A program made the translations under genes and the position numbers. Source: Candidatus Krumholzibacteriia bacterium (GTDB taxonomy: Bacteria > Krumholzibacteriota > Krumholzibacteriia > Krumholzibacteriales > Krumholzibacteriaceae). Taken from it: a DNA stretch of 64,000 nt. The stretch spans positions 256,001 to 320,000 of the forward strand of contig CAWIIQ010000002.1 of NCBI GenBank assembly GCA_963836185.1. Reading direction: 5' to 3'. Positions 2,415 through 47,391 of this stretch are shown here, one piece after another (the stretch's first letter is position 1; the number at the start of each line of letters is the position of its first letter). The notes under the pieces were generated by a model. The model did no database searches. It saw only the letters and a program-made list of their open reading frames with translations, and was not told the origin of the DNA.

Positions 2415-4881
2415 ATGGCTTATGCACCGAAGCGTAATGAAATACCGGTTGGAAAGCTCAGATGGAAATGTCCCGGCAAATACCTTGATTTCAAGACGAC
2501 AAACGATATCAAGCCATGTACCGATATAATCGGGCAGGACCGTGCCCTGCACGCGATCAAGATGGGGCTCGAACTCGAGCACCGCGGGTACAACATCTTC
2601 ATAACTGGCCTGGTCGGAACGGGGCGCACATCGACTATCAAGCATCTCCTCGAGAAGCTCGAGCGCAAGGCCCCGATCCCTTCCGACATATGCTACATGT
2701 ACAACTTCCGTCATCCGAGCAATCCGGTCTATATCGAGCTCGATGCGGGGCAGGGGAATCAGCTCGCCGGTGACATGGACGGTCTCATCCACGACCTCAA
2801 GAAGAACATCCCGTCGCTGTTCAAGAGCGAATACTACCAGAACCGCCGAAAGAGGCTGATCGATTCGATGCAGGCGAAGCAGAAGAAGGTCGCCTCGGCC
2901 TTCGAGGACAAGATAGGCAAAGAAGGCTTCGCGATGGTAAGCATGCAGGTCGGTCCTGTCATGAAGCCGCAGCTCGTGCCCGTTGTAGAAGGGAGCCCTG
3001 TCGATCACGCGACCCTCACACAGATGGTCGATGAGGGGAAGGTCTCAAAGGAAGAGTTCGCGCGGATGAAGGAATCGGCCGAGATCCTCTCCGAGGAGAT
3101 GACGCAGATCTACGACAAGATGAAGGAACTCGAGCGCAACTTGAAGAAGAAGCTCGAGAAACTCGATATAGATGTCGTTCAGCCGACGATCCACGAGATG
3201 ATCGTCGATATCAGACAAGAAGTATAAATGTGAGCCATTGAGCAGGACGCTGAAGTTGATCGAGAAGGAGATCATGGAACGGCTCGACCTCTTCCGCGCG
3301 AAGGACGAGGAGGAGCGCAAGGAGATCATGGCGGCTTTTGTCGCCGAGGACGGTCACATGGAGGACCCTTTCCGCGAATTCAGAGTCAATGTCGTTGTAG
3401 ACAATTCCGAAACGACCGCGCCGCCTGTTATCACCGAGAACTTCCCCACCCTGAGCAATATCTTCGGAGTCATCGAGAGGGATTTCACTCCCTCGGGATG
3501 GTCCATGCCTGACCATATGAGCATTCGAGCAGGAGCTTTCCATAAGGCGAACGGCGGTTATCTCGTGATGAACGCGCTCGATGTCTTTATAGAGCCGGGC
3601 GTCTGGCAGATACTCAAGAGGACGCTGAAGAGCTGTGAAGCGGTCATCCAGAACTACGACCAGTGGAGCATGATGAGCTCCTCGGCGCTCAAGCCGGAGC
3701 CGATGTGCGTGAAGGTCAAGATCGTCCTGATCGGCGATTCGCGCCTCTACTATCTGCTCCAGTCATACGATGAGGATTTCAGGAAGATATTCAAGATAAG
3801 GGCCGATTTCGACCGCGAGATCGACAACAGGGCCGCCGTCATCAAGCAGTACGCCGGATTCATCAGGGGGCTCTCCGACAGGGAGAACCTGAAGGCGTTC
3901 GATTCAGACGGGGTCGCCGCGGTTGTAGAGTACGGGGTCCGTGTCGCAGGCAGGCAGACGAAACTCTCGACGAGGTTCAGCCTTATCTCCGATATGGTCC
4001 GGGAGGCTCATTATCACGCTGAGAAGGCGGGCAAGCGGATCGCTTCGCGTGAGCATGTCGATCTGGCGATACAGCACAGGATCAAGCGGGTCAACATGCT
4101 GGAGGACAAGATCCAGGAAAGGATCGATGACGGGACATTGATGATAGACACTTCCGGCTCCGTCGTCGGACAGGTCAACGCCCTGTCGGTATACAATCTC
4201 GGCGATTACATGTTCGGCAAACCATCAAGGATCACCGTGGTCACATCGCTCGGCAACTCGGGCCTCATCAATATCGAGAGGGAGGCGGACCTGAGCGGCA
4301 GCACGCACAACAAGGGCGTGCTTATCCTCGCCGGCTTCCTCAGAAGCAGGTTCGGGCAGGAGAACCCGATCGTGATGAGTGCGAGTCTCTGCTTTGAGCA
4401 GTCTTACGGAGGCGTCGATGGCGACAGCGCCAGCTCAACCGAGCTCTATGCCATACTGTCGAGCCTCTCGGGCCTGCCGATAAGGCAGGATACCGCAGTC
4501 ACCGGCTCGATCAACCAGAAGGGTGAGATCCAGCCGATAGGCGGGGCCAACGAGAAGATCGAGGGTTTCTACAACGTCTGCAAGGCGAGGGGGCTCTCGG
4601 GCACCGAGGGTGTCATCATACCGTGGCAGAACGTTCCCGACCTGATGCTCGACCAGGAAGTGGTCGACGCTGTCGCGGAGGGCAGGTTCCATCTGTATTC
4701 CATCAGGCATGTCGACGAGGGGATCGAGATCCTCACAGGTGTAAAGGCGGGGAAGAAGCTCAAGAGCGGCAAGTACCAGAAGGATACAGTTAATGAGCTG
4801 GTCAGGCAGGCCCTGTACGATATGGCCGTTAGCTGGAAGCAGTTCGGGGCTAGAAATGACAAGGAGAAGGGGAAGTCCTGA
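2415..4881 (+). CDS. Lon-like ATP-dependent protease (AAA_32 plus Lon_C type), one frameshift near 3227
   Basis: IIGQDRAL, GLVGTGRTS, HKANGGYL, catalytic dyad context EQSYGGVDGDSAS and GGANEKIEG. RBS GGAGG precedes ATG 2415. Confidence 0.88.
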
Positions 4882-30369: not shown

Positions 30370-31912
30370 ATGGCAAGAATCAAAAAAGAGATAGTGATCA
30401 ACTACACGAACAGGGAGGTTCGGATAGCGATCCTTGAAGACGGGGAACTCGTCGAGTTCCTCATCGAACGCGAGGAGAGCAGGCGGACCGTAGGCGGAAT
30501 ATACATGGGAAAGATCAACGCTGTGATTCCCGGTATACAGGCCGCCTTTGTCGATATCGGGCAGGAGAAGGCGGCATTTCTTCACGTCAGCGACGTGGCC
30601 ACGGGTTCGCTCGATCCCGACCTGATCGACATCGACGAGGATTTCGACTTCCAGAACAGCAGGCGGCGCCGGGAGTATCCGCCGATCGAGAACCTTCTGA
30701 AGAAGGGACAGGACCTGATCGTGCAGATCCGCAAGGAGGCGATCGGCACGAAGGGCCCGAGGATATCTTCCCAGCTCTCGCTCCCCGGAAGGTACGCCGT
30801 GCTGATGCCCAACCTCGACCATATAGGGATCAGCAAGCGGATCGAATCGCGCAAGGAGCGCCACAGGCTAAGGGACATCGTCCGCAAGAACAGGCCGAAG
30901 GGATGCGCCGTCATAGTCCGTACCGCCGGCAAGGGAGTCGATGACGACCAGCTCCGCGATGATATCCGCGGCCTCGAGAAGCGCTGGAAGGAAATCAAAA
31001 AGAAGATAGACAGGGCCGTACCGCCCTGCCTGATACACGAGGATGTCGATATCACAGTCTTCGCCATCCGCGACCTCTTCTCGAAAGACATCAACAGGAT
31101 CGTCATAGACAACGTCGATGAGCGCGACAGGCTGGGGAAGTATCTCAAGTCGTTCGCCCCGGAGCTCGCTTCGAAAGTCCAGCTCTACAAGGAAAAAGCG
31201 CCGATATTCGACTACTACGAGATCGAATCGGAGATCGAGAAGACCCTCGAGAGCAAGATCTGGCTGCGCAAGGGGGGGTACATCGTCATCGAGCATACCG
31301 AGGCGCTCGTCTCGATCGACGTCAACACGGGAAGGTTCACCGGACGCAAGAACCAGGAGGAGACTATCCTCGAGACGAACCTCATCGCCGCGCGCGAGAT
31401 CGGGCGCCAGTTACGGCTGAGGGATATAGGCGGGATCATCGTCGTCGATTTCATCGATATGGAGCGCGAGGAGAACCGCCGCAAGGTCTACAACGAGTTC
31501 CGTAACGCGATCCGCAAGGACCGCTCGAGGGCAAGGGTATCGCAGATCAGCGATCTCGGGTTGATCGAGCTGAGCCGCAAGCGTGTTCGTCCGAGCCTCC
31601 TTCACTATTACAGCGATGAATGCCCGTACTGCGCGGGGAGCGGAAAGATCCTCTCGATAGAATCGATGGCGATGAAGGTCGAGCACTGGCTCAGGCGCAT
31701 CGGCTCGCTCAAGAAGGTGACCGGCCTGCAGTTCAGGGTCAACCCGATGCTCGGGATCTTCCTGCGCGAGAACCGCGAGGAGAACCTCAGGGAGCTCTCC
31801 CAGCTGTACAGATCTCGAGATCGTGCTGATCGACGATCCGAGGATGCATCGCGAGGACTATGAGATATACTCGCTCGACGGGAAGCGGGATCTCAAAGCA
31901 GAGTTCGTTTAG
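30370..31912 (+). CDS. Rne/Rng family ribonuclease (frameshift near 31812)
   Basis: QAAFVDIG, KGPRIS, IDVNTG, RLRDIGGIIVVDFIDM, CPYCAGSG. The C-terminus continues in another frame to TAG at 31912. Confidence 0.93.
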
Positions 31913-31921
31913 AGAGCATCA

Positions 31922-31986
31922 ATCCCGGTTTTACCCTTCCGAATCCGGAGTGAGGACACACGGATTCTTCAGGGTAAAACCGGGAT
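31922..31986. repeat. Stem-loop element, copy 1
   Basis: Perfect 16-bp outer stem ATCCCGGTTTTACCCT / AGGGTAAAACCGGGAT; inner stem GAATCCG / CGGATTC. Confidence 0.85.
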
Positions 31987-32187
31987 ATTATTATCCCCAC
32001 ACATCCCCACCTCAAGATCCCCCTTCCCATCGCGCTCCCAACTGCCCAAAAGAAAAAAAACAAAAAATAAACCGGTGCCTGAAGAAAGGGGAGAGCCAGG
32101 ATGAATAAACATTGAATAAATCAATAACCTTTATAAGATGAGTCTACGAGGGTTCCCTGTTTTACTTTTATTATTGGAGGTTTCTGC

Positions 32188-33003
32188 ATGAGAAGAAAAG
32201 GCGTTCCGATGCTCGCCGCAATTTTCCTTATAGCTGTCTTCTTCTTTGTTTCAGCTCAGGATATATACGCCCAGGGAAAGAAACAAAAGGGTGAAAAGGG
32301 AAACGGCAAGGGGAAGAAAACCGAGGAAAAAGTCGAGGGAGAGGATAAATCGAAGGAGCAAGTTGGAGATTCTTTAAACACGAACAGTAAAAAAGGTCAT
32401 TATACACCGAAGAAACTGAAGGAAGAAAACAAGATGGAATGGGAGGGGGGCAATCCTCCTGGATGGTCAAAAGGCACTAAAACCGGCTGGGGAGAATCAG
32501 GAGCGCCTCCAGGCAAGACAAAGCAGGGCGACAAGAGTGGCAGAGAAAACGAGAAGCGATACCCACCTGGAGCGGAAGACTGGGACAAAGGAAAAAGGGA
32601 AGAGTGGGATAAGGACGTGGAGGCCGCGAAGGAACGAGTCCGGAAAAAGGCGCGTCAGCGGAAGGGAAGTGCTGAGGGAGACGAGGAGAGTGCCGTCAGG
32701 TCGGTCGAAGGAGCCGCGAGAGAAGGCGTTCCGGTTGAACAGGCCGAGAAAACCGTTGAAAAAGCGATTGACCGCGGCATGAAGGGTGAGGAGATCGAAA
32801 AAGTTACCCGTGCGATGTCTTATGGTGCTGATAATAATGTCGATTACGGGAAACTCGATTCCTTTGTTAAAAAGAAAATGGATTCGGGTGAGCACGGAGA
32901 CGAACTCGCTATTTCAATTTACAAGGAAGTCGACAGTGGAAACCTGGAGAAGGTCAAAGAGGAGAAAAAACCATGGTGGAAAAGGATCTTTAAAAGGGAT
33001 TGA
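32188..33003 (+). CDS. Exported hypothetical protein, K/E/G-rich
   Basis: RBS GGAGG; signal peptide; PPGW, PPGK and PPGA motifs; C-terminal KKPWWKRIFKRD. Confidence 0.8.
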   Translation: MRRKGVPMLAAIFLIAVFFFVSAQDIYAQGKKQKGEKGNGKGKKTEEKVEGEDKSKEQVGDSLNTNSKKGHYTPKKLKEENKMEWEGGNPPGWSKGTKTGWGESGAPPGKTKQGDKSGRENEKRYPPGAEDWDKGKREEWDKDVEAAKERVRKKARQRKGSAEGDEESAVRSVEGAAREGVPVEQAEKTVEKAIDRGMKGEEIEKVTRAMSYGADNNVDYGKLDSFVKKKMDSGEHGDELAISIYKEVDSGNLEKVKEEKKPWWKRIFKRD

Positions 33004-33025
33004 TCGTCAATAAGCCATGGGCAGA

Positions 33026-33094
33026 AAATTCCGGCATTACTCCTCCGGCTTCTGGGTGAGAACACACGGATTCTCTGGGGTAATGCCGGAATTT
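33026..33094. repeat. Stem-loop element, copy 2
   Basis: 18-bp outer stem AAATTCCGGCATTACTCC / GGGGTAATGCCGGAATTT; shares core GTGAGRACACACGGATTCT with copy 1. Confidence 0.85.
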
Positions 33095-33260
33095 CATTTG
33101 TCCCCCTGCGCTACCCATCCAAGCGAAGCGCGCCGGAAGGTGGAGAATAGTATTGAAATAGTTCTGAAGGCTGTCTTGCAATAATATCAGTGCGTTCACC
33201 GGATGCATGTTCCGGGGAACAGTCTTGCTGGAGGGGTTCCCCCTGGGAAAGAGAATCCAC

Positions 33261-34385
33261 ATGAAAATTCATAGTGCCGGAGTTCGTTCGATCTCCTGGA
33301 TGATGCTCGCGGCGCTCCTGTCGCAGGGATGCACGAGCTATCATAATTATGAACCGGGAAACGCGGGTGAGATCATAGAGGAAGTCAACACGAAGGGCGC
33401 CGAGCGGAAGTCAAGGATAGCCACGAATGATGGATATCTATATTCGGCGACGAAACTTCACATCAGGCCGGACTCTTCATTCTGGTATGCGGGCGAGGAT
33501 CTCCAGCCGATCAGTCGCCAGACTCCCGAAATAAACGAGGTGATATTAATCGATCGCTCGAAAGGCGCCGGCGAAGGATTCCTGCTGGCGGCCATCCCCA
33601 TAATAATCTTCACGGGAATAGTCGCAATTAACGCGAGCTTGAATCCCACGATGTGTGATGGGAGCGAATTCTGTATCGATCCGGAGCCGGACGCTATAGC
33701 AATGGCTGGCCTGGGTACGGCAGTCGTCGGCGGATTGCTGTTTGCTTCAGCAGGTTACCTGATCGGCCATCAAGACGTGTACAGGTTCTCTTCCGACGCG
33801 TACTGGACAGGCGTTCTGAAGCAATGGGGATTTAAGGCCGGGCGCACCTGGGCGACACAGAGCTGGGAAGGGAGCGCACCATCTTCCTGGTACAACCCGA
33901 ATAATGTGTCCTGGGAGCCTGGAATACATATTGGATGTTATGCCGAGTGGTTTGACTATCAGAATTTCAGTATTACGACAGGCGTGAATTATGAGGAGAA
34001 AGGATTCGAATACTACGTCGGTGAGCGGCAGGCGGCGGTTCATTCGAGATATTCCTACATCTCACTGCCGATAGCCGTAAAATATTCGATCAGACGCGGC
34101 TTTGTAAGGCCGTACATCCTTGGCGGCCCCAGGATCGACTTTTTTACGGGCAGCGCTGATGACGACTGGGGAGTGGCATCAAGCTATAATGATTTTATTT
34201 TCGGCCTGTCATACGGCGGAGGGATCGAGTTCTGGTCGGATAAGAAGAGAAGTATATTCCTGGAATGTATATACAATCAGGATCTGACCTACGCCAGTGA
34301 AGCAGAACCTCTTTATCCCCCCGGCACCTCTGTGAAGATCAAAAACGAATCGGTCAACCTTTCCCTTGGAATAGGATTCAACTGA
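33261..34385 (+). CDS. Lipoprotein-like N-domain fused to a PorT-like outer-membrane beta-barrel
   Basis: LLSQGC; two hydrophobic Gly-rich helices; WGFKAG...YISLPIAVKY...RPYILGGP...SVNLSLGIGFN. Confidence 0.7.
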   Translation: MKIHSAGVRSISWMMLAALLSQGCTSYHNYEPGNAGEIIEEVNTKGAERKSRIATNDGYLYSATKLHIRPDSSFWYAGEDLQPISRQTPEINEVILIDRSKGAGEGFLLAAIPIIIFTGIVAINASLNPTMCDGSEFCIDPEPDAIAMAGLGTAVVGGLLFASAGYLIGHQDVYRFSSDAYWTGVLKQWGFKAGRTWATQSWEGSAPSSWYNPNNVSWEPGIHIGCYAEWFDYQNFSITTGVNYEEKGFEYYVGERQAAVHSRYSYISLPIAVKYSIRRGFVRPYILGGPRIDFFTGSADDDWGVASSYNDFIFGLSYGGGIEFWSDKKRSIFLECIYNQDLTYASEAEPLYPPGTSVKIKNESVNLSLGIGFN

Positions 34386-34559
34386 TACCCCGCACATGCT
34401 CGGGGACCTGATTTTTGATAATCTACGAAAAACCCTTTGTATTTATCAGTAATGATTCTAAACTGGCCGCATAGCTGGCTGCCACCTTGTTCCAGGTGAT
34501 GGGGTTTAGTTCTAAACGGGGTTTCCATATTCACTGCAGTTCAGCGGAAAGGAGAGGTT

Positions 34560-35264
34560 ATGCCTCTATCCAGGCGTCTGGGGGCGGAGTTTATCGGGAC
34601 CTTCTGGCTCGTCTTCGGTGGATGCGGCAGCGCCGTGCTGGCGGCGGCATTCCCCGGGTTCGGGATCGGTTTCGTAGGGGTCTCGCTGGCCTTCGGCTTT
34701 ACGGTCCTGACGATGGCATACGCGATCGGGCACGTATCGGGGTGCCATCTCAATCCGGCCGTATCGTTCGGCCTGTGGGCCGGCAAGCGGTTCGACGGGA
34801 AGGACCTGCTTCCCTACATCATCGCCCAGGTCCTCGGCGCTATCGCGGCCGCGGCTGTGCTGTACGTGATCGCCTCGGGCAAGGCGGGGTTTGAGATAGG
34901 CGGATTCGCGGCCAACGGTTACGCGGAGCATTCACCCGGCGGGTATTCGATGCTCGCGGCGCTCGTAGCGGAGGTCGTCCTGACATTCATGTTCCTCTTC
35001 ATAATCCTCGGCGCTACGGATGAGAGGGCCCCGAAGGGTTTTGCGCCGATAGCGATCGGCCTCGCGCTGACTTTGATCCACCTGATAAGCATCCCCGTGA
35101 CGAATACCTCGGTCAATCCCGCGAGAAGCACCGGACCGGCGCTCTTCGCTGGTGGCTGGGCACTCTCGCAGCTCTGGCTCTTCTGGGTCGCTCCGATAGT
35201 CGGAGGGATACTGGCAGGGTTTGTCTACCCGCGTGTGACTGGTGAAAAGACAGGCACTGAGTAA
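34560..35264 (+). CDS. aqpZ: Aquaporin Z
   Basis: [39 protein letters not shown]. Confidence 0.97.
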
Positions 35265-35276
35265 AGGAGACACAGG

Positions 35277-35519
35277 ATGAATTTCCTTCTCTGGATAATA
35301 ATAGGCGCCCTGGCGGGCTGGATCGCCGGCAGGATAATGAAGGGAAGAGGGTTCGGGCCCCTCGGCAACATCATGATCGGTATCATCGGCAGTATTCTCG
35401 GAGGATGGGTCTTCGGGCTCTTCGGGATAACGGCCGGAGGCATAATCGGCTCGCTGGTGACAGCGGTAGTAGGCGCGGTGATACTGCTCTGGATCGTTGG
35501 GCTGGTCAAAAAGAAGTAG
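35277..35519 (+). CDS. GlsB/YeaQ/YmgE family stress-response membrane protein
   Basis: WIIIGALAGWIAGRIM...NIMIGIIGSILGG...AVVGAVILL. Confidence 0.93.
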   Translation: MNFLLWIIIGALAGWIAGRIMKGRGFGPLGNIMIGIIGSILGGWVFGLFGITAGGIIGSLVTAVVGAVILLWIVGLVKKK

Positions 35520-35559
35520 TTCGCCCGTATCGGAAAACAAGGTAAGGAAGGATAGAAAT

Positions 35560-36489
35560 ATGAGATTCGTTTCCACAGTACTACTGGTCGCTCTCTTGTT
35601 CATCACACTGGCGGCTCCGGCCTCGTTCGCAGGCAAAGACAAGGACAAGCCCGACAGCAAGGCCCTCTGCTGGATGATCTGGCCCTGGCCGTTCACCGAC
35701 CCGTGCGCAAGCTGCAATGACTCAGATGGCGACGGTGTATGCGACCACGAAGATGTCTGCCTGGAAACTCCGGCGGGAGTCAAGGTCGACAGCTATGGAT
35801 GCCCGGTCGACACGGACGGCGACGGTGTCTGGGATACGTTTGATAAATGCCCAGGCACACCGAAAGGCGCGAAGGTCGACAAGAAAGGCTGTCCGCGCGA
35901 TTCGGACGGAGACGGTGTCTTTGACGGTATCGATAAGTGCCCCGACACCCCGAAAGGGGCCGAAGTAGACAGGAAGGGCTGCCCAATCGACAGTGACGAA
36001 GACGGTGTATATGACGGGCTCGACAAGTGTCCCGATACGAACAAGCGGACCAAGGTCGACAAGGACGGGTGCCCTGTCAAGGTGAGCGAGGCCGCCTACG
36101 AATTCTTCAACACCGGCCTTTTCTCGACATCTGATATCGTGTTTGATGTCAGCAAGGCCGACCTGAAACCGGAGTCGAAGGGACTTCTCGACAAGATCGG
36201 GAAGGTCCTCTCCGAGTGGCCCGAGGCGGAGATCGAGATCGGCGGGCATACCGATTCATCCGGGTCGGAGAGCTTCAACCAGAAACTCTCCGAGGACCGC
36301 GCAAAATCGGTCAGGGAATATCTCCTGGAGAATTTCCCGAAGCTGAACCCCTCGTATCTCAAATCGGCAGGGTACGGCGAAAACAAGCCCGTAGCCTCGA
36401 ATGACACCGAGGAGGGCAAGAAGGAGAATCGTCGGGTAGAGTTCAAGATATTGAACCAGGAGGAGCTGAAACGCCCGGTTAAGGAGTAA
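35560..36489 (+). CDS. OmpA-family peptidoglycan-binding protein with thrombospondin type 3-like repeats
   Basis: Signal peptide; four 30-aa repeats DxDGDGVxDxxDKCPxTP...GCP (35716-36075); IEIGGHTDS, LSEDRA, NRRVEF. Confidence 0.92.
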   Translation: MRFVSTVLLVALLFITLAAPASFAGKDKDKPDSKALCWMIWPWPFTDPCASCNDSDGDGVCDHEDVCLETPAGVKVDSYGCPVDTDGDGVWDTFDKCPGTPKGAKVDKKGCPRDSDGDGVFDGIDKCPDTPKGAEVDRKGCPIDSDEDGVYDGLDKCPDTNKRTKVDKDGCPVKVSEAAYEFFNTGLFSTSDIVFDVSKADLKPESKGLLDKIGKVLSEWPEAEIEIGGHTDSSGSESFNQKLSEDRAKSVREYLLENFPKLNPSYLKSAGYGENKPVASNDTEEGKKENRRVEFKILNQEELKRPVKE

Positions 36490-36527: not shown

Positions 36528-36595
36528 GTGAAGGGCAGGCCCGTTGAAACCCTCGGTTCCTCCGGGGTTTCTGAGGGCCTGCCCTTCACTCTTTC
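36528..36595 (+). terminator. Long stem-loop after the OmpA-family gene
   Basis: 15-bp outer stem GTGAAGGGCAGGCCC / GGGCCTGCCCTTCAC plus an inner stem, followed by TCTTTC. Confidence 0.65.
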
Positions 36596-38048: not shown

Positions 38049-38893
38049 ATGAGGGAGATCGAGGCCTCGAGAGATAACGGAAGAAGTGGCGCGCCTGTGC
38101 ATGGAGGCGAACTTCGAGCTCGAGGATGACGTGCAGAAGGCCCTCGAAAAGGCTCACGAGGCGGAAGAATCGCCCGCGGGCAAGGAGGTCCTCAGGCAGA
38201 TCATCGAGAACTCGGGTATAGCGAGGGGCGAGAGGATGCCGATGTGCCAGGACACCGGCCTGGCTGTCATCTTCGCCGAGGTAGGGCAGGACCTGCACAT
38301 CGCAGGCGGCGGTTTCGAGGACGCCATCAACGCGGGCGTCAGGAAGGGCTATACCGACGGGTACCTTCGCAAGTCGGTCCTCGCCGATCCGGTCAAGGGC
38401 GGCAATACCGGGGACAACACACCGGCCGTCATCCATACGACGATCGTGCCGGGTGAGGAGCTCAAGCTCTGGGTCGTTCCCAAGGGGGGCGGCAGCGAGA
38501 ACATGAGCCGCATCGCCATGATGAAGCCTGCCGACGGCATCGAGGGCATCAAGAAGTTCGTCGTGGAGAACGTCAAGTCCGCCTCGGGCAATCCCTGCCC
38601 GCCGATCATCGTCGGCGTCGGCATCGGGGGGACCTTCGAGAGATGCGCGCAGCTGGCGAAGAAGGCGCTGCTCCGGGAGATCGGCTCGCACGCATCCCGA
38701 CGAGCTCTATGCCGGGCTGGAAAAGGAACTGCTCAAGATGGTAAACGATCTCGGCGTCGGCCCGATGGGGCTCGGCGGCCGGACGACGGCGCTCGCCGTC
38801 CACATCGAGGCGGCCCCGAGGCATATCGCCTCGTTCCCGGTATCGATGAACATCAACTGTCACGCCGCTAGGCACAAATATATCGAGCTGTAG
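38049..38893 (+). CDS. Class I fumarate hydratase/tartrate dehydratase alpha subunit (frameshifts near 38070 and 38690)
   Basis: PMCQDTG, GYLRKSV, NTGDNTPA, PKGGGSEN, GNPCPP. The C-terminal GPMGLGG...NCHAARH is in another frame. Confidence 0.9.
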
Positions 38894-39496: not shown

Positions 39497-40217
39497 CTGG
39501 CAACGAAAGTACTCGCGGTCATACCGGCCCGTTACGGGTCGACCCGCTTTCCCGGCAAACCGCTGGCGAAGATCGCCGGGCTGCCGATGATCCTGCATGT
39601 CACCCGGCGCGTCTCGGGGATAAGGGGTATCGAGAAGGTGATCGTCGCCACTGACGACGAGCGCATCATGGAAGTCGTCACCGCCGACGGCCACCTGGCG
39701 GAGATGACTTCGAAGCGTCACCGGACCGGCACCGCCCGAGTCGCCGAGGTGGCCGCGCGTCACAGCTGCAGCATCGTGGTAAATGTCCAGGGCGATGAGC
39801 CACTGCTTCCATCTGCCGCCGTCGAGAGGCTGGTGGCGAGTCATGCGAGCCGATCACAAACTGCTGATGGCGACTCTGGCCACCACGGGAAGCGGCGCGG
39901 CCGAGATCAACAGGCCCGACGTCGTCAAGGTCGCCGTCGACCGCGAAGGGTACGCGATGTATTTCTCGCGCTCGCCCGTCCCTCACGGTACCGACAAGTT
40001 CCTCCACCATATCGGCATCTATGCCTTCAGGCGGAAATTCCTGCTCGGATACGATGAGATGCCGAAGGGGCCGTTCGAGAAAGCGGAGGGCCTCGAGCAG
40101 CTCAGGGCCCTGGAAAACGGGTTCAGAATACGCGTTATGCCATGCAGGGCGCGGTCTTTCGGCGTTGACAGGCCGGAAGACATAAAAAGAGTTGAAAAAA
40201 GACTGGCCAGCCGTTAA
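39497..40217 (+). CDS. kdsB: 3-deoxy-manno-octulosonate cytidylyltransferase (frameshift near 39840)
   Basis: [16 protein letters not shown] upstream of the called ORF; [31 protein letters not shown]. Confidence 0.93.
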
Positions 40218-47275: not shown

Positions 47276-47391
47276 TGAATACGTTGAAGGCCTGTGTTAT
47301 ACCTTGAAAAGTGGTAAGTTATTTACCTTGTTTTTCAACATGTTACGTGAGATGACACGTTTCGTTACGGTAGAACGCAGGAGGACACAGG

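Follow-up and report, generated by a model that had tools for sequence, protein, structure and literature searches.

What are the two related hairpins that flank a gene for a 271-aa protein behind the RNase E/G gene rne in a Krumholzibacteriia bacterium: a mobile repeat, a recombination site or a signal in the transcript? The window is the whole stretch of 64,000 nt that was analysed. Coordinates without a prefix are window positions, G000 designates the source genome (3.5 Mb), g1 its genus and G008 a genome of the sister genus (Table 1). As the first-pass annotation had described, copy 1 starts 9 nt past the TAG at 31910-31912 and copy 2 starts 22 nt past the TGA ending at 33003. Both share a 19-nt core, and their stems differ in the way reported there: four compensated pairs and one G-U in the outer stems can be read directly in the sequence. 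Likewise, attC R boxes (AAC...GTT) and a U-tract directly after the stem are absent from both copies. In the whole genome, the 19-nt core occurs only at 31950 and 33056, even when two mismatches are allowed. Folded as RNA, copies 1 and 2 reach z-scores of -7.7 and -6.3, and none of 200 shuffles folds as well, on both strands and for RNA and DNA alike. A genome-wide nhmmer search with copy 1 recovers copy 2 at E 2.5e-5. The 5' arm of the inner stem of copy 2 is degraded by two mismatches and two G-U pairs. Rfam covariance models gave no match at gathering score in the window, and the sub-threshold matches over copies 1 and 2 and over the long form described below are weak.

Table 1. Coordinates of the hairpins, their surroundings and a multicopy gene family of the source genome
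Feature	Position	Strand	Description
rne (RNase E/G)	30370-31912	+	Pfam PF10150; C-termini of relatives; frame shifts near 31811
Copy 1	31922-31986	+	subtype A: 16-bp stem, 3x3 loop, 7-bp stem, GA/A, 3-bp top stem, 4-nt loop
C-rich, G-poor tail	31987-32037	+	ends in CCCATC-type motif common to rne copies; rut-like composition (putative role)
Gene for 271-aa Lys/Glu-rich protein	32188-33003	+	hydrophobic N-terminus; no Pfam family; not bound to hairpin
Copy 2	33026-33094	+	subtype A; inner stem decayed; foot is left breakpoint versus G002
Segment absent from G002 at this place	33026-34436	+	copy 2, its tail and ORF 33207-34385
Shortened tail	33095-33124	+	resembles tail behind rne copies
Genes for aquaporin (MIP), 80-aa membrane protein and OmpA-domain protein	34560-36489	+	Pfam; synteny; variable block between rne and L21 gene
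Copy 3	36528-36589	-	subtype B; missed by first-pass annotation; folding z -9.0
Long-top copies	C1:69957-70036 and about C1:70336-70436 (G000)		facing each other, upstream of Thr-Tyr-Gly-Thr tRNA cluster
HNH gene family, examples	C1:1009573-1011256, C1:1219980-1221723, C1:1803235-1804941, C2:60987-62617, C3:151468-153104 (G000); L101:3938-5362		

The proposal that the hairpins form a REP-like structured repeat family gained support on three counts: further copies were found, covariation is strong, and an allele with one hairpin is present. A scan of the genome for long inverted repeats revealed further hairpins built alike. When six of the seven short copies were used to seed an HMM, it found all seven at E <= 4e-9, and the next match has E 1.9. 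Together with two long-top copies, G000 contains nine. Copy 3 is located 39 nt past the stop codon of the OmpA gene, antisense to this gene, and points away from the promoter region of the L21 gene. The element comprises an outer stem of 13-17 bp, a 3x3 loop with a T.C mismatch, a 7-bp stem of the GAAWCCC/GGGWTTC type and a variable top with a 3' bulged A. The T.C mismatch is found in 46 of 53 rows of element sequence and the bulged A in 47. Short units span 62-69 nt with a top of 11-15 nt, and the long form measures about 100 nt with a top of about 45 nt. Subtype A, to which copies 1 and 2 belong, carries the top GA-GTG-loop-CAC-A and subtype B the top CGG-AGGMA-CCG-A. The outer stem covaries freely. 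Across 17 copies of subtype B, both partners have changed in 18 of 26 pairs, and 73 double-change cells were counted versus 20.2 in shuffles (0 of 500 reach 73) and at most 16 in slid controls; across seven copies of subtype A, 6 of 26 pairs covary. As both structures were written by hand from the same sequences and orthologous rows are related, these counts overstate independence. The arms pair with each other and neither is a separate palindrome. A symmetric CCGG is present in 30 of 52 rows at varying positions, and no GTAG or CGTC tag was found at the foot in the flanks of the 53 rows.

The conserved build also bears on two RNA-level readings. According to the first-pass annotation, a minus-strand small RNA might pair through its loop with ribosome-binding sites, and GGAGGACACA does occur once in the window, at 47380. 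However, the loop varies between copies 1 and 2 and among orthologous copies (AGGA, AGAA, ACGA, AAAGA or GGGA in seven aligned copies) and subtype B has a wholly different top, so that such an sRNA is extremely unlikely. A CsrA site was considered separately and rejected: GGA is the CsrA site motif, and the commonest subtype B loop, AGGCA, lacks it.

Does the shape act in RNA or in DNA? The compensated pairs had been taken as a sign of selection on structure. The pairs are real, but a conclusion on RNA structure went too far, as the stems lack the G.U bias of terminators. Element stems contain 10 G.U and 14 A.C in 900 pairs, a count that leaves out 8 of the 53 rows misregistered by a script (all 53 rows: 22 G.U, 24 A.C), compared to 17 and 2 in 75 U-tailed terminators of G000 (Fisher p 0.0016, with rows that are not independent). 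Subtype A alone leans the opposite way with 5 G.U and 1 A.C. The missing bias means that folding is not tuned to one RNA strand, and it argues against a role of the sense-strand RNA. It fits a DNA hairpin, use of both strands, or repair of the palindrome by template switching. Template switching can repair palindromes; the persistence of loop and bulge argues against pure repair. Directly after the element stem a U-tract is absent, and short T runs are seen in few rows only. Downstream of the elements, C exceeds G with a skew of +0.25 (44 of 53 rows positive) versus +0.06 behind 39 terminators (p 0.0002). This skew is strong at the rne, DUF4446 and porin-like loci and weak at copy 2 (+0.06), at the peptidase locus and in G008 (mean +0.11); the opposite flank of the elements is mildly C-skewed, too (+0.12). 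One gene that bears the element in g1 has a U-tailed terminator in all four other genera examined. Dar and Sorek (PMC6061677) describe how the ends of Rho-dependent transcripts are protected by stem-loops that lack a U-tail and have C-over-G sequence behind them. Like these E. coli stem-loops, the element is a stable hairpin without U-tail followed by C-over-G sequence, and Rho is present in the genome. Unlike this class, which needs no shared sequence, it has a conserved core, and some copies are antisense or divergent. Judged by sequence, a role of the hairpins as 3'-end signals is plausible.

The family has a narrow distribution. Model R1 of the repeat matched 8 of 41 genomes. Model R2 matched 10 of 40, strongly in all seven g1 genomes and in G008, and weakly in two others, G007 (E 0.002) and G010 (E 0.03), where the full shape is missing. 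In a sample of the phylum, 6 of 150 genomes matched R2, all of them g1. The genomes surveyed are incomplete samples, and the absence of the family elsewhere holds for those searched; among these, the repeat is confined to two sister genera. G008, sister to g1 on a CTP-synthase tree (support 100/99), carries it at 13 places including inverted pairs and a tandem pair, and copies per genome number about 5-13. An exact 26-nt pattern that covers the core of subtype B only had no locus in viral contigs. In genome contigs it had 20 loci (10 Krumholzibacteriota/-ia, 6 'uncultured bacterium', 4 Actinomycetota), and in metagenomes 15, of which 13 score at least 38 bits and two consist of the core only. 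The four Actinomycetota loci, the only ones of the 20 that were rescored, lack a proper outer stem and were set aside as chance matches. No account of this repeat was found in Rfam or in the titles and opening abstract lines of literature on Krumholzibacteri palindromes and RNA motifs.

In G000, all seven short copies have a stop codon at most about 40 nt away, where the distances for rne and one peptidase gene, both frame-shifted in G000, refer to the homologous stop of relatives. The g1 genomes have their copies at a small set of common loci, for the most part at a distance of 1-40 nt from a stop codon. Based on a custom codon-score gene caller and with orthologs counted repeatedly, 26 of the 53 rows lie between convergent genes, 12 are tandem-sense, 5 antisense behind a gene and 4 divergent, and in 6 one side is uncalled. 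Nine rows point away from a gene start, and five of these are also antisense to the preceding gene. Convergent enrichment in G000 is marginal (3 of 8 copies, p 0.045, the ninth copy not yet included). A SECIS-like recoding role was discarded: copies follow TAA, TAG and TGA alike. The flanking genes share no evident function. The DUF4446 locus is named by Pfam, and for the htpX, S9 peptidase, porin-like, rhomboid and L21 loci we use the names that we presume from their sequences.

At these loci, copies have been lost, inverted and partially duplicated. Copy 1 is orthologous at rne in five of six same-genus relatives (6 of 7 genus genomes including G000); in G004, the hairpin is deleted and the tail end kept. 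In 23 fetched rne loci of other genera, no element was found. At the convergent htpX locus, the element is inverted in the two non-sister genomes G002 and G005, reduced to an arm remnant in G001 and partly duplicated in G000. At the DUF4446 locus, G002 and G004 carry an identical 12-bp palindromic scar in place of the element. The central hexamer of this scar is found on both sides of the filled allele; this agrees with duplication as well as with deletion. Since G002 and G004 are not sisters either, two losses are simpler than repeated gains. A clean pre-insertion site was found at none of the loci, and the scars fit deletion. In the tRNA-cluster locus of G003 (L270:1376-1500), the 3' arm of a long copy stands behind a degenerate short one, which suggests that one element replaced or entered another. 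In G004, only a collapsed remnant is left at this locus.

Two readings without mobility have to be weighed against this turnover. First, the hairpin might act in cis for the cell, for example as a site of RNase III-type processing or as a hairpin bound by protein; selection for one host protein would keep its core, and ordinary duplication would account for the copies. The core is indeed near-invariant at five or more loci in two genera, whereas the outer stems have diverged by compensated changes, internal loop and bulge were never corrected to a perfect palindrome, and a copy follows the RNase E/G gene in most genomes of the genus. However, the restriction to one clade of the family, the losses in single genomes, rne of G004 among them, the orientation flips, the lack of G.U bias and the functionally unrelated neighbours render this reading rather unlikely. 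Second, the copies could be ordinary terminators without U-tail that arose by local copying and were kept alike by gene conversion and template switching, no dedicated protein being involved. Most copies adjoin stop codons, about half of the rows lie between convergent genes, and copy 2 carries the rne tail. In addition, long inverted repeats are expected to yield inversions and scars, and both are seen. Against this stand the 75 U-tailed terminators, detected in G000 by a simple scan, which are short and, among the examples listed, lack the core. Furthermore, a 26-nt core common to loci megabases apart and the copies in divergent regions would not be explained, and we regard this second reading as quite unlikely.

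The region between rne and the L21 gene allows the history of copy 2 to be followed. The stop of rne that had been assumed, TAG at 31910-31912, corresponds to that of the relatives, and six of the same genus read through to its position, but the assembled frame ends at 31863 due to one extra base near 31811. One contig of sequencing run X2 lacks this base, which is probably an assembly error. The sequences of two DNA runs aligned to this region reach neither hairpin beyond its edge. Regions at about 38086-38871, 39587-40217 and 40564 also look frame-shifted, which suggests long-read indel errors in this assembly. The gene between the hairpins had been called an orphan. It has no Pfam match and its protein no usable match in the ESM Atlas, but homologs exist in 11 of 40 relatives. 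The idea that this gene and its downstream hairpin form a cassette failed: none of nine fetched loci of its homologs has a downstream hairpin, and G002 has the gene without the second hairpin. This means that the hairpins flank the gene incidentally.

An allele with one hairpin is found in G001 (rne-hairpin-aquaporin gene). G002 has the order rne-hairpin-271-aa gene-aquaporin gene, from which G000 differs by the additional copy 2 and a beta-barrel ORF. Here the sequences of G000 and G002 are homologous up to the foot of copy 2 and again from 34437 on, behind a 1.4-kb segment. Copy 2, seen only in G000 among the genomes searched, lies at the edge of this lineage-specific segment. ORF 33207-34385 encodes a C-terminal outer-membrane beta-barrel domain (Pfam). 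Its residues 2-176 match one G001 gene and 184-373 match separate beta-barrel genes elsewhere; by these matches it looks like a fusion. The outer stem of copy 2 is nearer to the rne copies of relatives (2-6 differences) than that of copy 1 (6-8), so most compensated pairs arose in the line of copy 1. Copy 2 most likely arose when the rne 3' region with its hairpin and tail was duplicated or recombined, and not by site-specific capture of a cassette.

Such capture would be expected if the hairpin were a single-strand recombination site of attC-like layout behind which genes are added, the unit being a hairpin and its downstream gene. The exact coincidence of copy 2 with the left breakpoint of a gene-bearing segment, the DNA behind the rne copy, which differs among the genus genomes, the variable top length and the absent strand bias agree with it. 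So does, at first sight, the metagenome contig L142, which at 2982-3045 carries a chimeric element whose 5' half is that of the DUF4446 locus and whose 3' half is that of the OmpA locus, joined at the core. However, in L142 a host gene is also fused to a protein that we take to resemble a phage portal, and the contig has the appearance of a misassembly. In addition, AAC/GTT boxes are absent, none of the four tyrosine recombinases of the genome is near a copy, and the G002 allele, which has the 271-aa gene without a second hairpin, and nine fetched loci with homologs of the beta-barrel ORF, none of which carries an element, disagree with such a site. The attC sites of the genome itself are canonical (AAC...GTT boxes) and unrelated in sequence to the element. 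A recombination site of this type is decidedly improbable. G000 has two integron-like arrays (C1:1091779-1104909 and C1:2068061-2073041), in one of which an integrase-like gene stands beside 63-98-nt attC-like sites and in another beside at least seven attC-like repeats of about 140 nt.

The first-pass annotation had also directed attention to RAYT/HUH enzymes and tyrosine recombinases as possible partners; none adjoins any copy tested. A Y1/RAYT gene (PF01797) was found nowhere in G000. Eight of 41 genomes, which are incomplete, have one, and the element is present at none of 12 such loci. It is likewise missing from 12 IS110, reverse transcriptase or DDE_Tnp_1 loci in five genomes and from 30 multicopy HNH loci. 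A search for GIY-YIG domains returned one 608-aa ORF in each of four of five genomes, which by its length we take to be UvrC. The HNH-domain genes themselves form a multicopy family; they are about 1.6-1.7 kb long, and at least seven copies are present in G000 and many in G006. They carry an internal 52-nt palindrome and no other Pfam domain, and the family behaves like a mobile element. In a more speculative proposal, the hairpin is the single-strand DNA site of a recombinase or transposase that reads its shape (the T.C-closed 3x3 loop, the GAAWCCC stem and the bulged A) and not GTAG/CGTC or AAC/GTT. Such an enzyme might insert the element behind stop codons, excise it via a central palindrome and be able to carry a downstream gene, for which copy 2 with the beta-barrel ORF would be an example. 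We consider this improbable.

The element is best described as a palindromic repeat, dispersed and lineage-specific, which works in the manner of REP and SPRITE sequences but is itself no REP, REPIN, attC site or intrinsic terminator. attC sites fold as two stems with an unpaired spacer, an extra-helical base and a variable top. The element folds likewise, but unlike integron attC it has no AAC/GTT boxes, array or nearby integrase. From intrinsic terminators it differs in lacking a U-tract and a preference of G.U over A.C. REPs and REPINs are extragenic palindromes between convergent or tandem genes that occur as singletons and inverted or tandem dimers and form long hairpins, and their excision leaves a short palindrome (PMC3733652, PMC3337134). 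Like REPs, the element is extragenic, repeated and near gene ends, and singletons and dimers exist. Unlike REPs, it lacks the GTAG or CGTC tag, is 62-69 nt (long form about 100) instead of 20-40 nt long and has a low copy number (9 in G000, 13 in G008). Unlike in REPINs, its arms are not individually palindromic REPs, and no RAYT was found. SPRITE of Streptococcus pneumoniae is portrayed as a low-copy, lineage-restricted long duplex near gene 3' ends, enriched between convergent genes and with no known transposase or target duplication, for which co-option at gene ends was proposed (PMC3049150). The element resembles this description in copy number, lineage restriction, long duplex and position. 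SPRITE is AT-rich with a U-rich tract and an AAAA/TTTT end, whereas the element is GC-rich and has no U-tract and a conserved internal loop and bulge.

Taken together, we rather favour the reading that the hairpins belong to a dispersed palindromic repeat, about 65 nt long, which spread in a REP-like, non-autonomous manner and now serves as a U-less protector of transcript 3' ends. Mobility and RNA function are what we infer in this reading. A protein would once have recognised the folded single strand by its internal loop, GAAWCCC stem and bulged A, and copied the element. Where a sense copy is located behind a gene, RNA polymerase would read through it, Rho might load on the C-rich tail, and exonucleases would trim the transcript back to the hairpin. 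Against this explanation speak the failure to find a mobilising enzyme among the families searched, a copy number low for REPs, and the absence of a tag and of a clean pre-insertion site. The finding adds a small, Rfam-unmatched repeat family from an uncultured lineage. At each locus one can trace how copies were gained, inverted or collapsed and how they replaced U-tailed terminators, and the family offers a compact example of the way in which a repeat may be put to use at transcript ends. Should a cognate enzyme be found, this would be a tag-less REP-like system; otherwise the significance is modest and at the level of the lineage.

Other repeats were noticed in G000. A second small family with a perfect palindrome of 28-30 nt (C1:216308, 272746 and 524089; C2:271494; also C1:314586-314740) is located upstream of paralogous genes for large secreted proteins. 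Two adjacent 16-nt palindromes at C3:118849-118886 resemble the parS consensus. Finally, a 195-nt direct repeat that starts with a tRNA 3' part is found at C1:1603984-1604178 and 1606644-1606836, 2.6 kb apart; these repeats are possibly attachment-site remnants.
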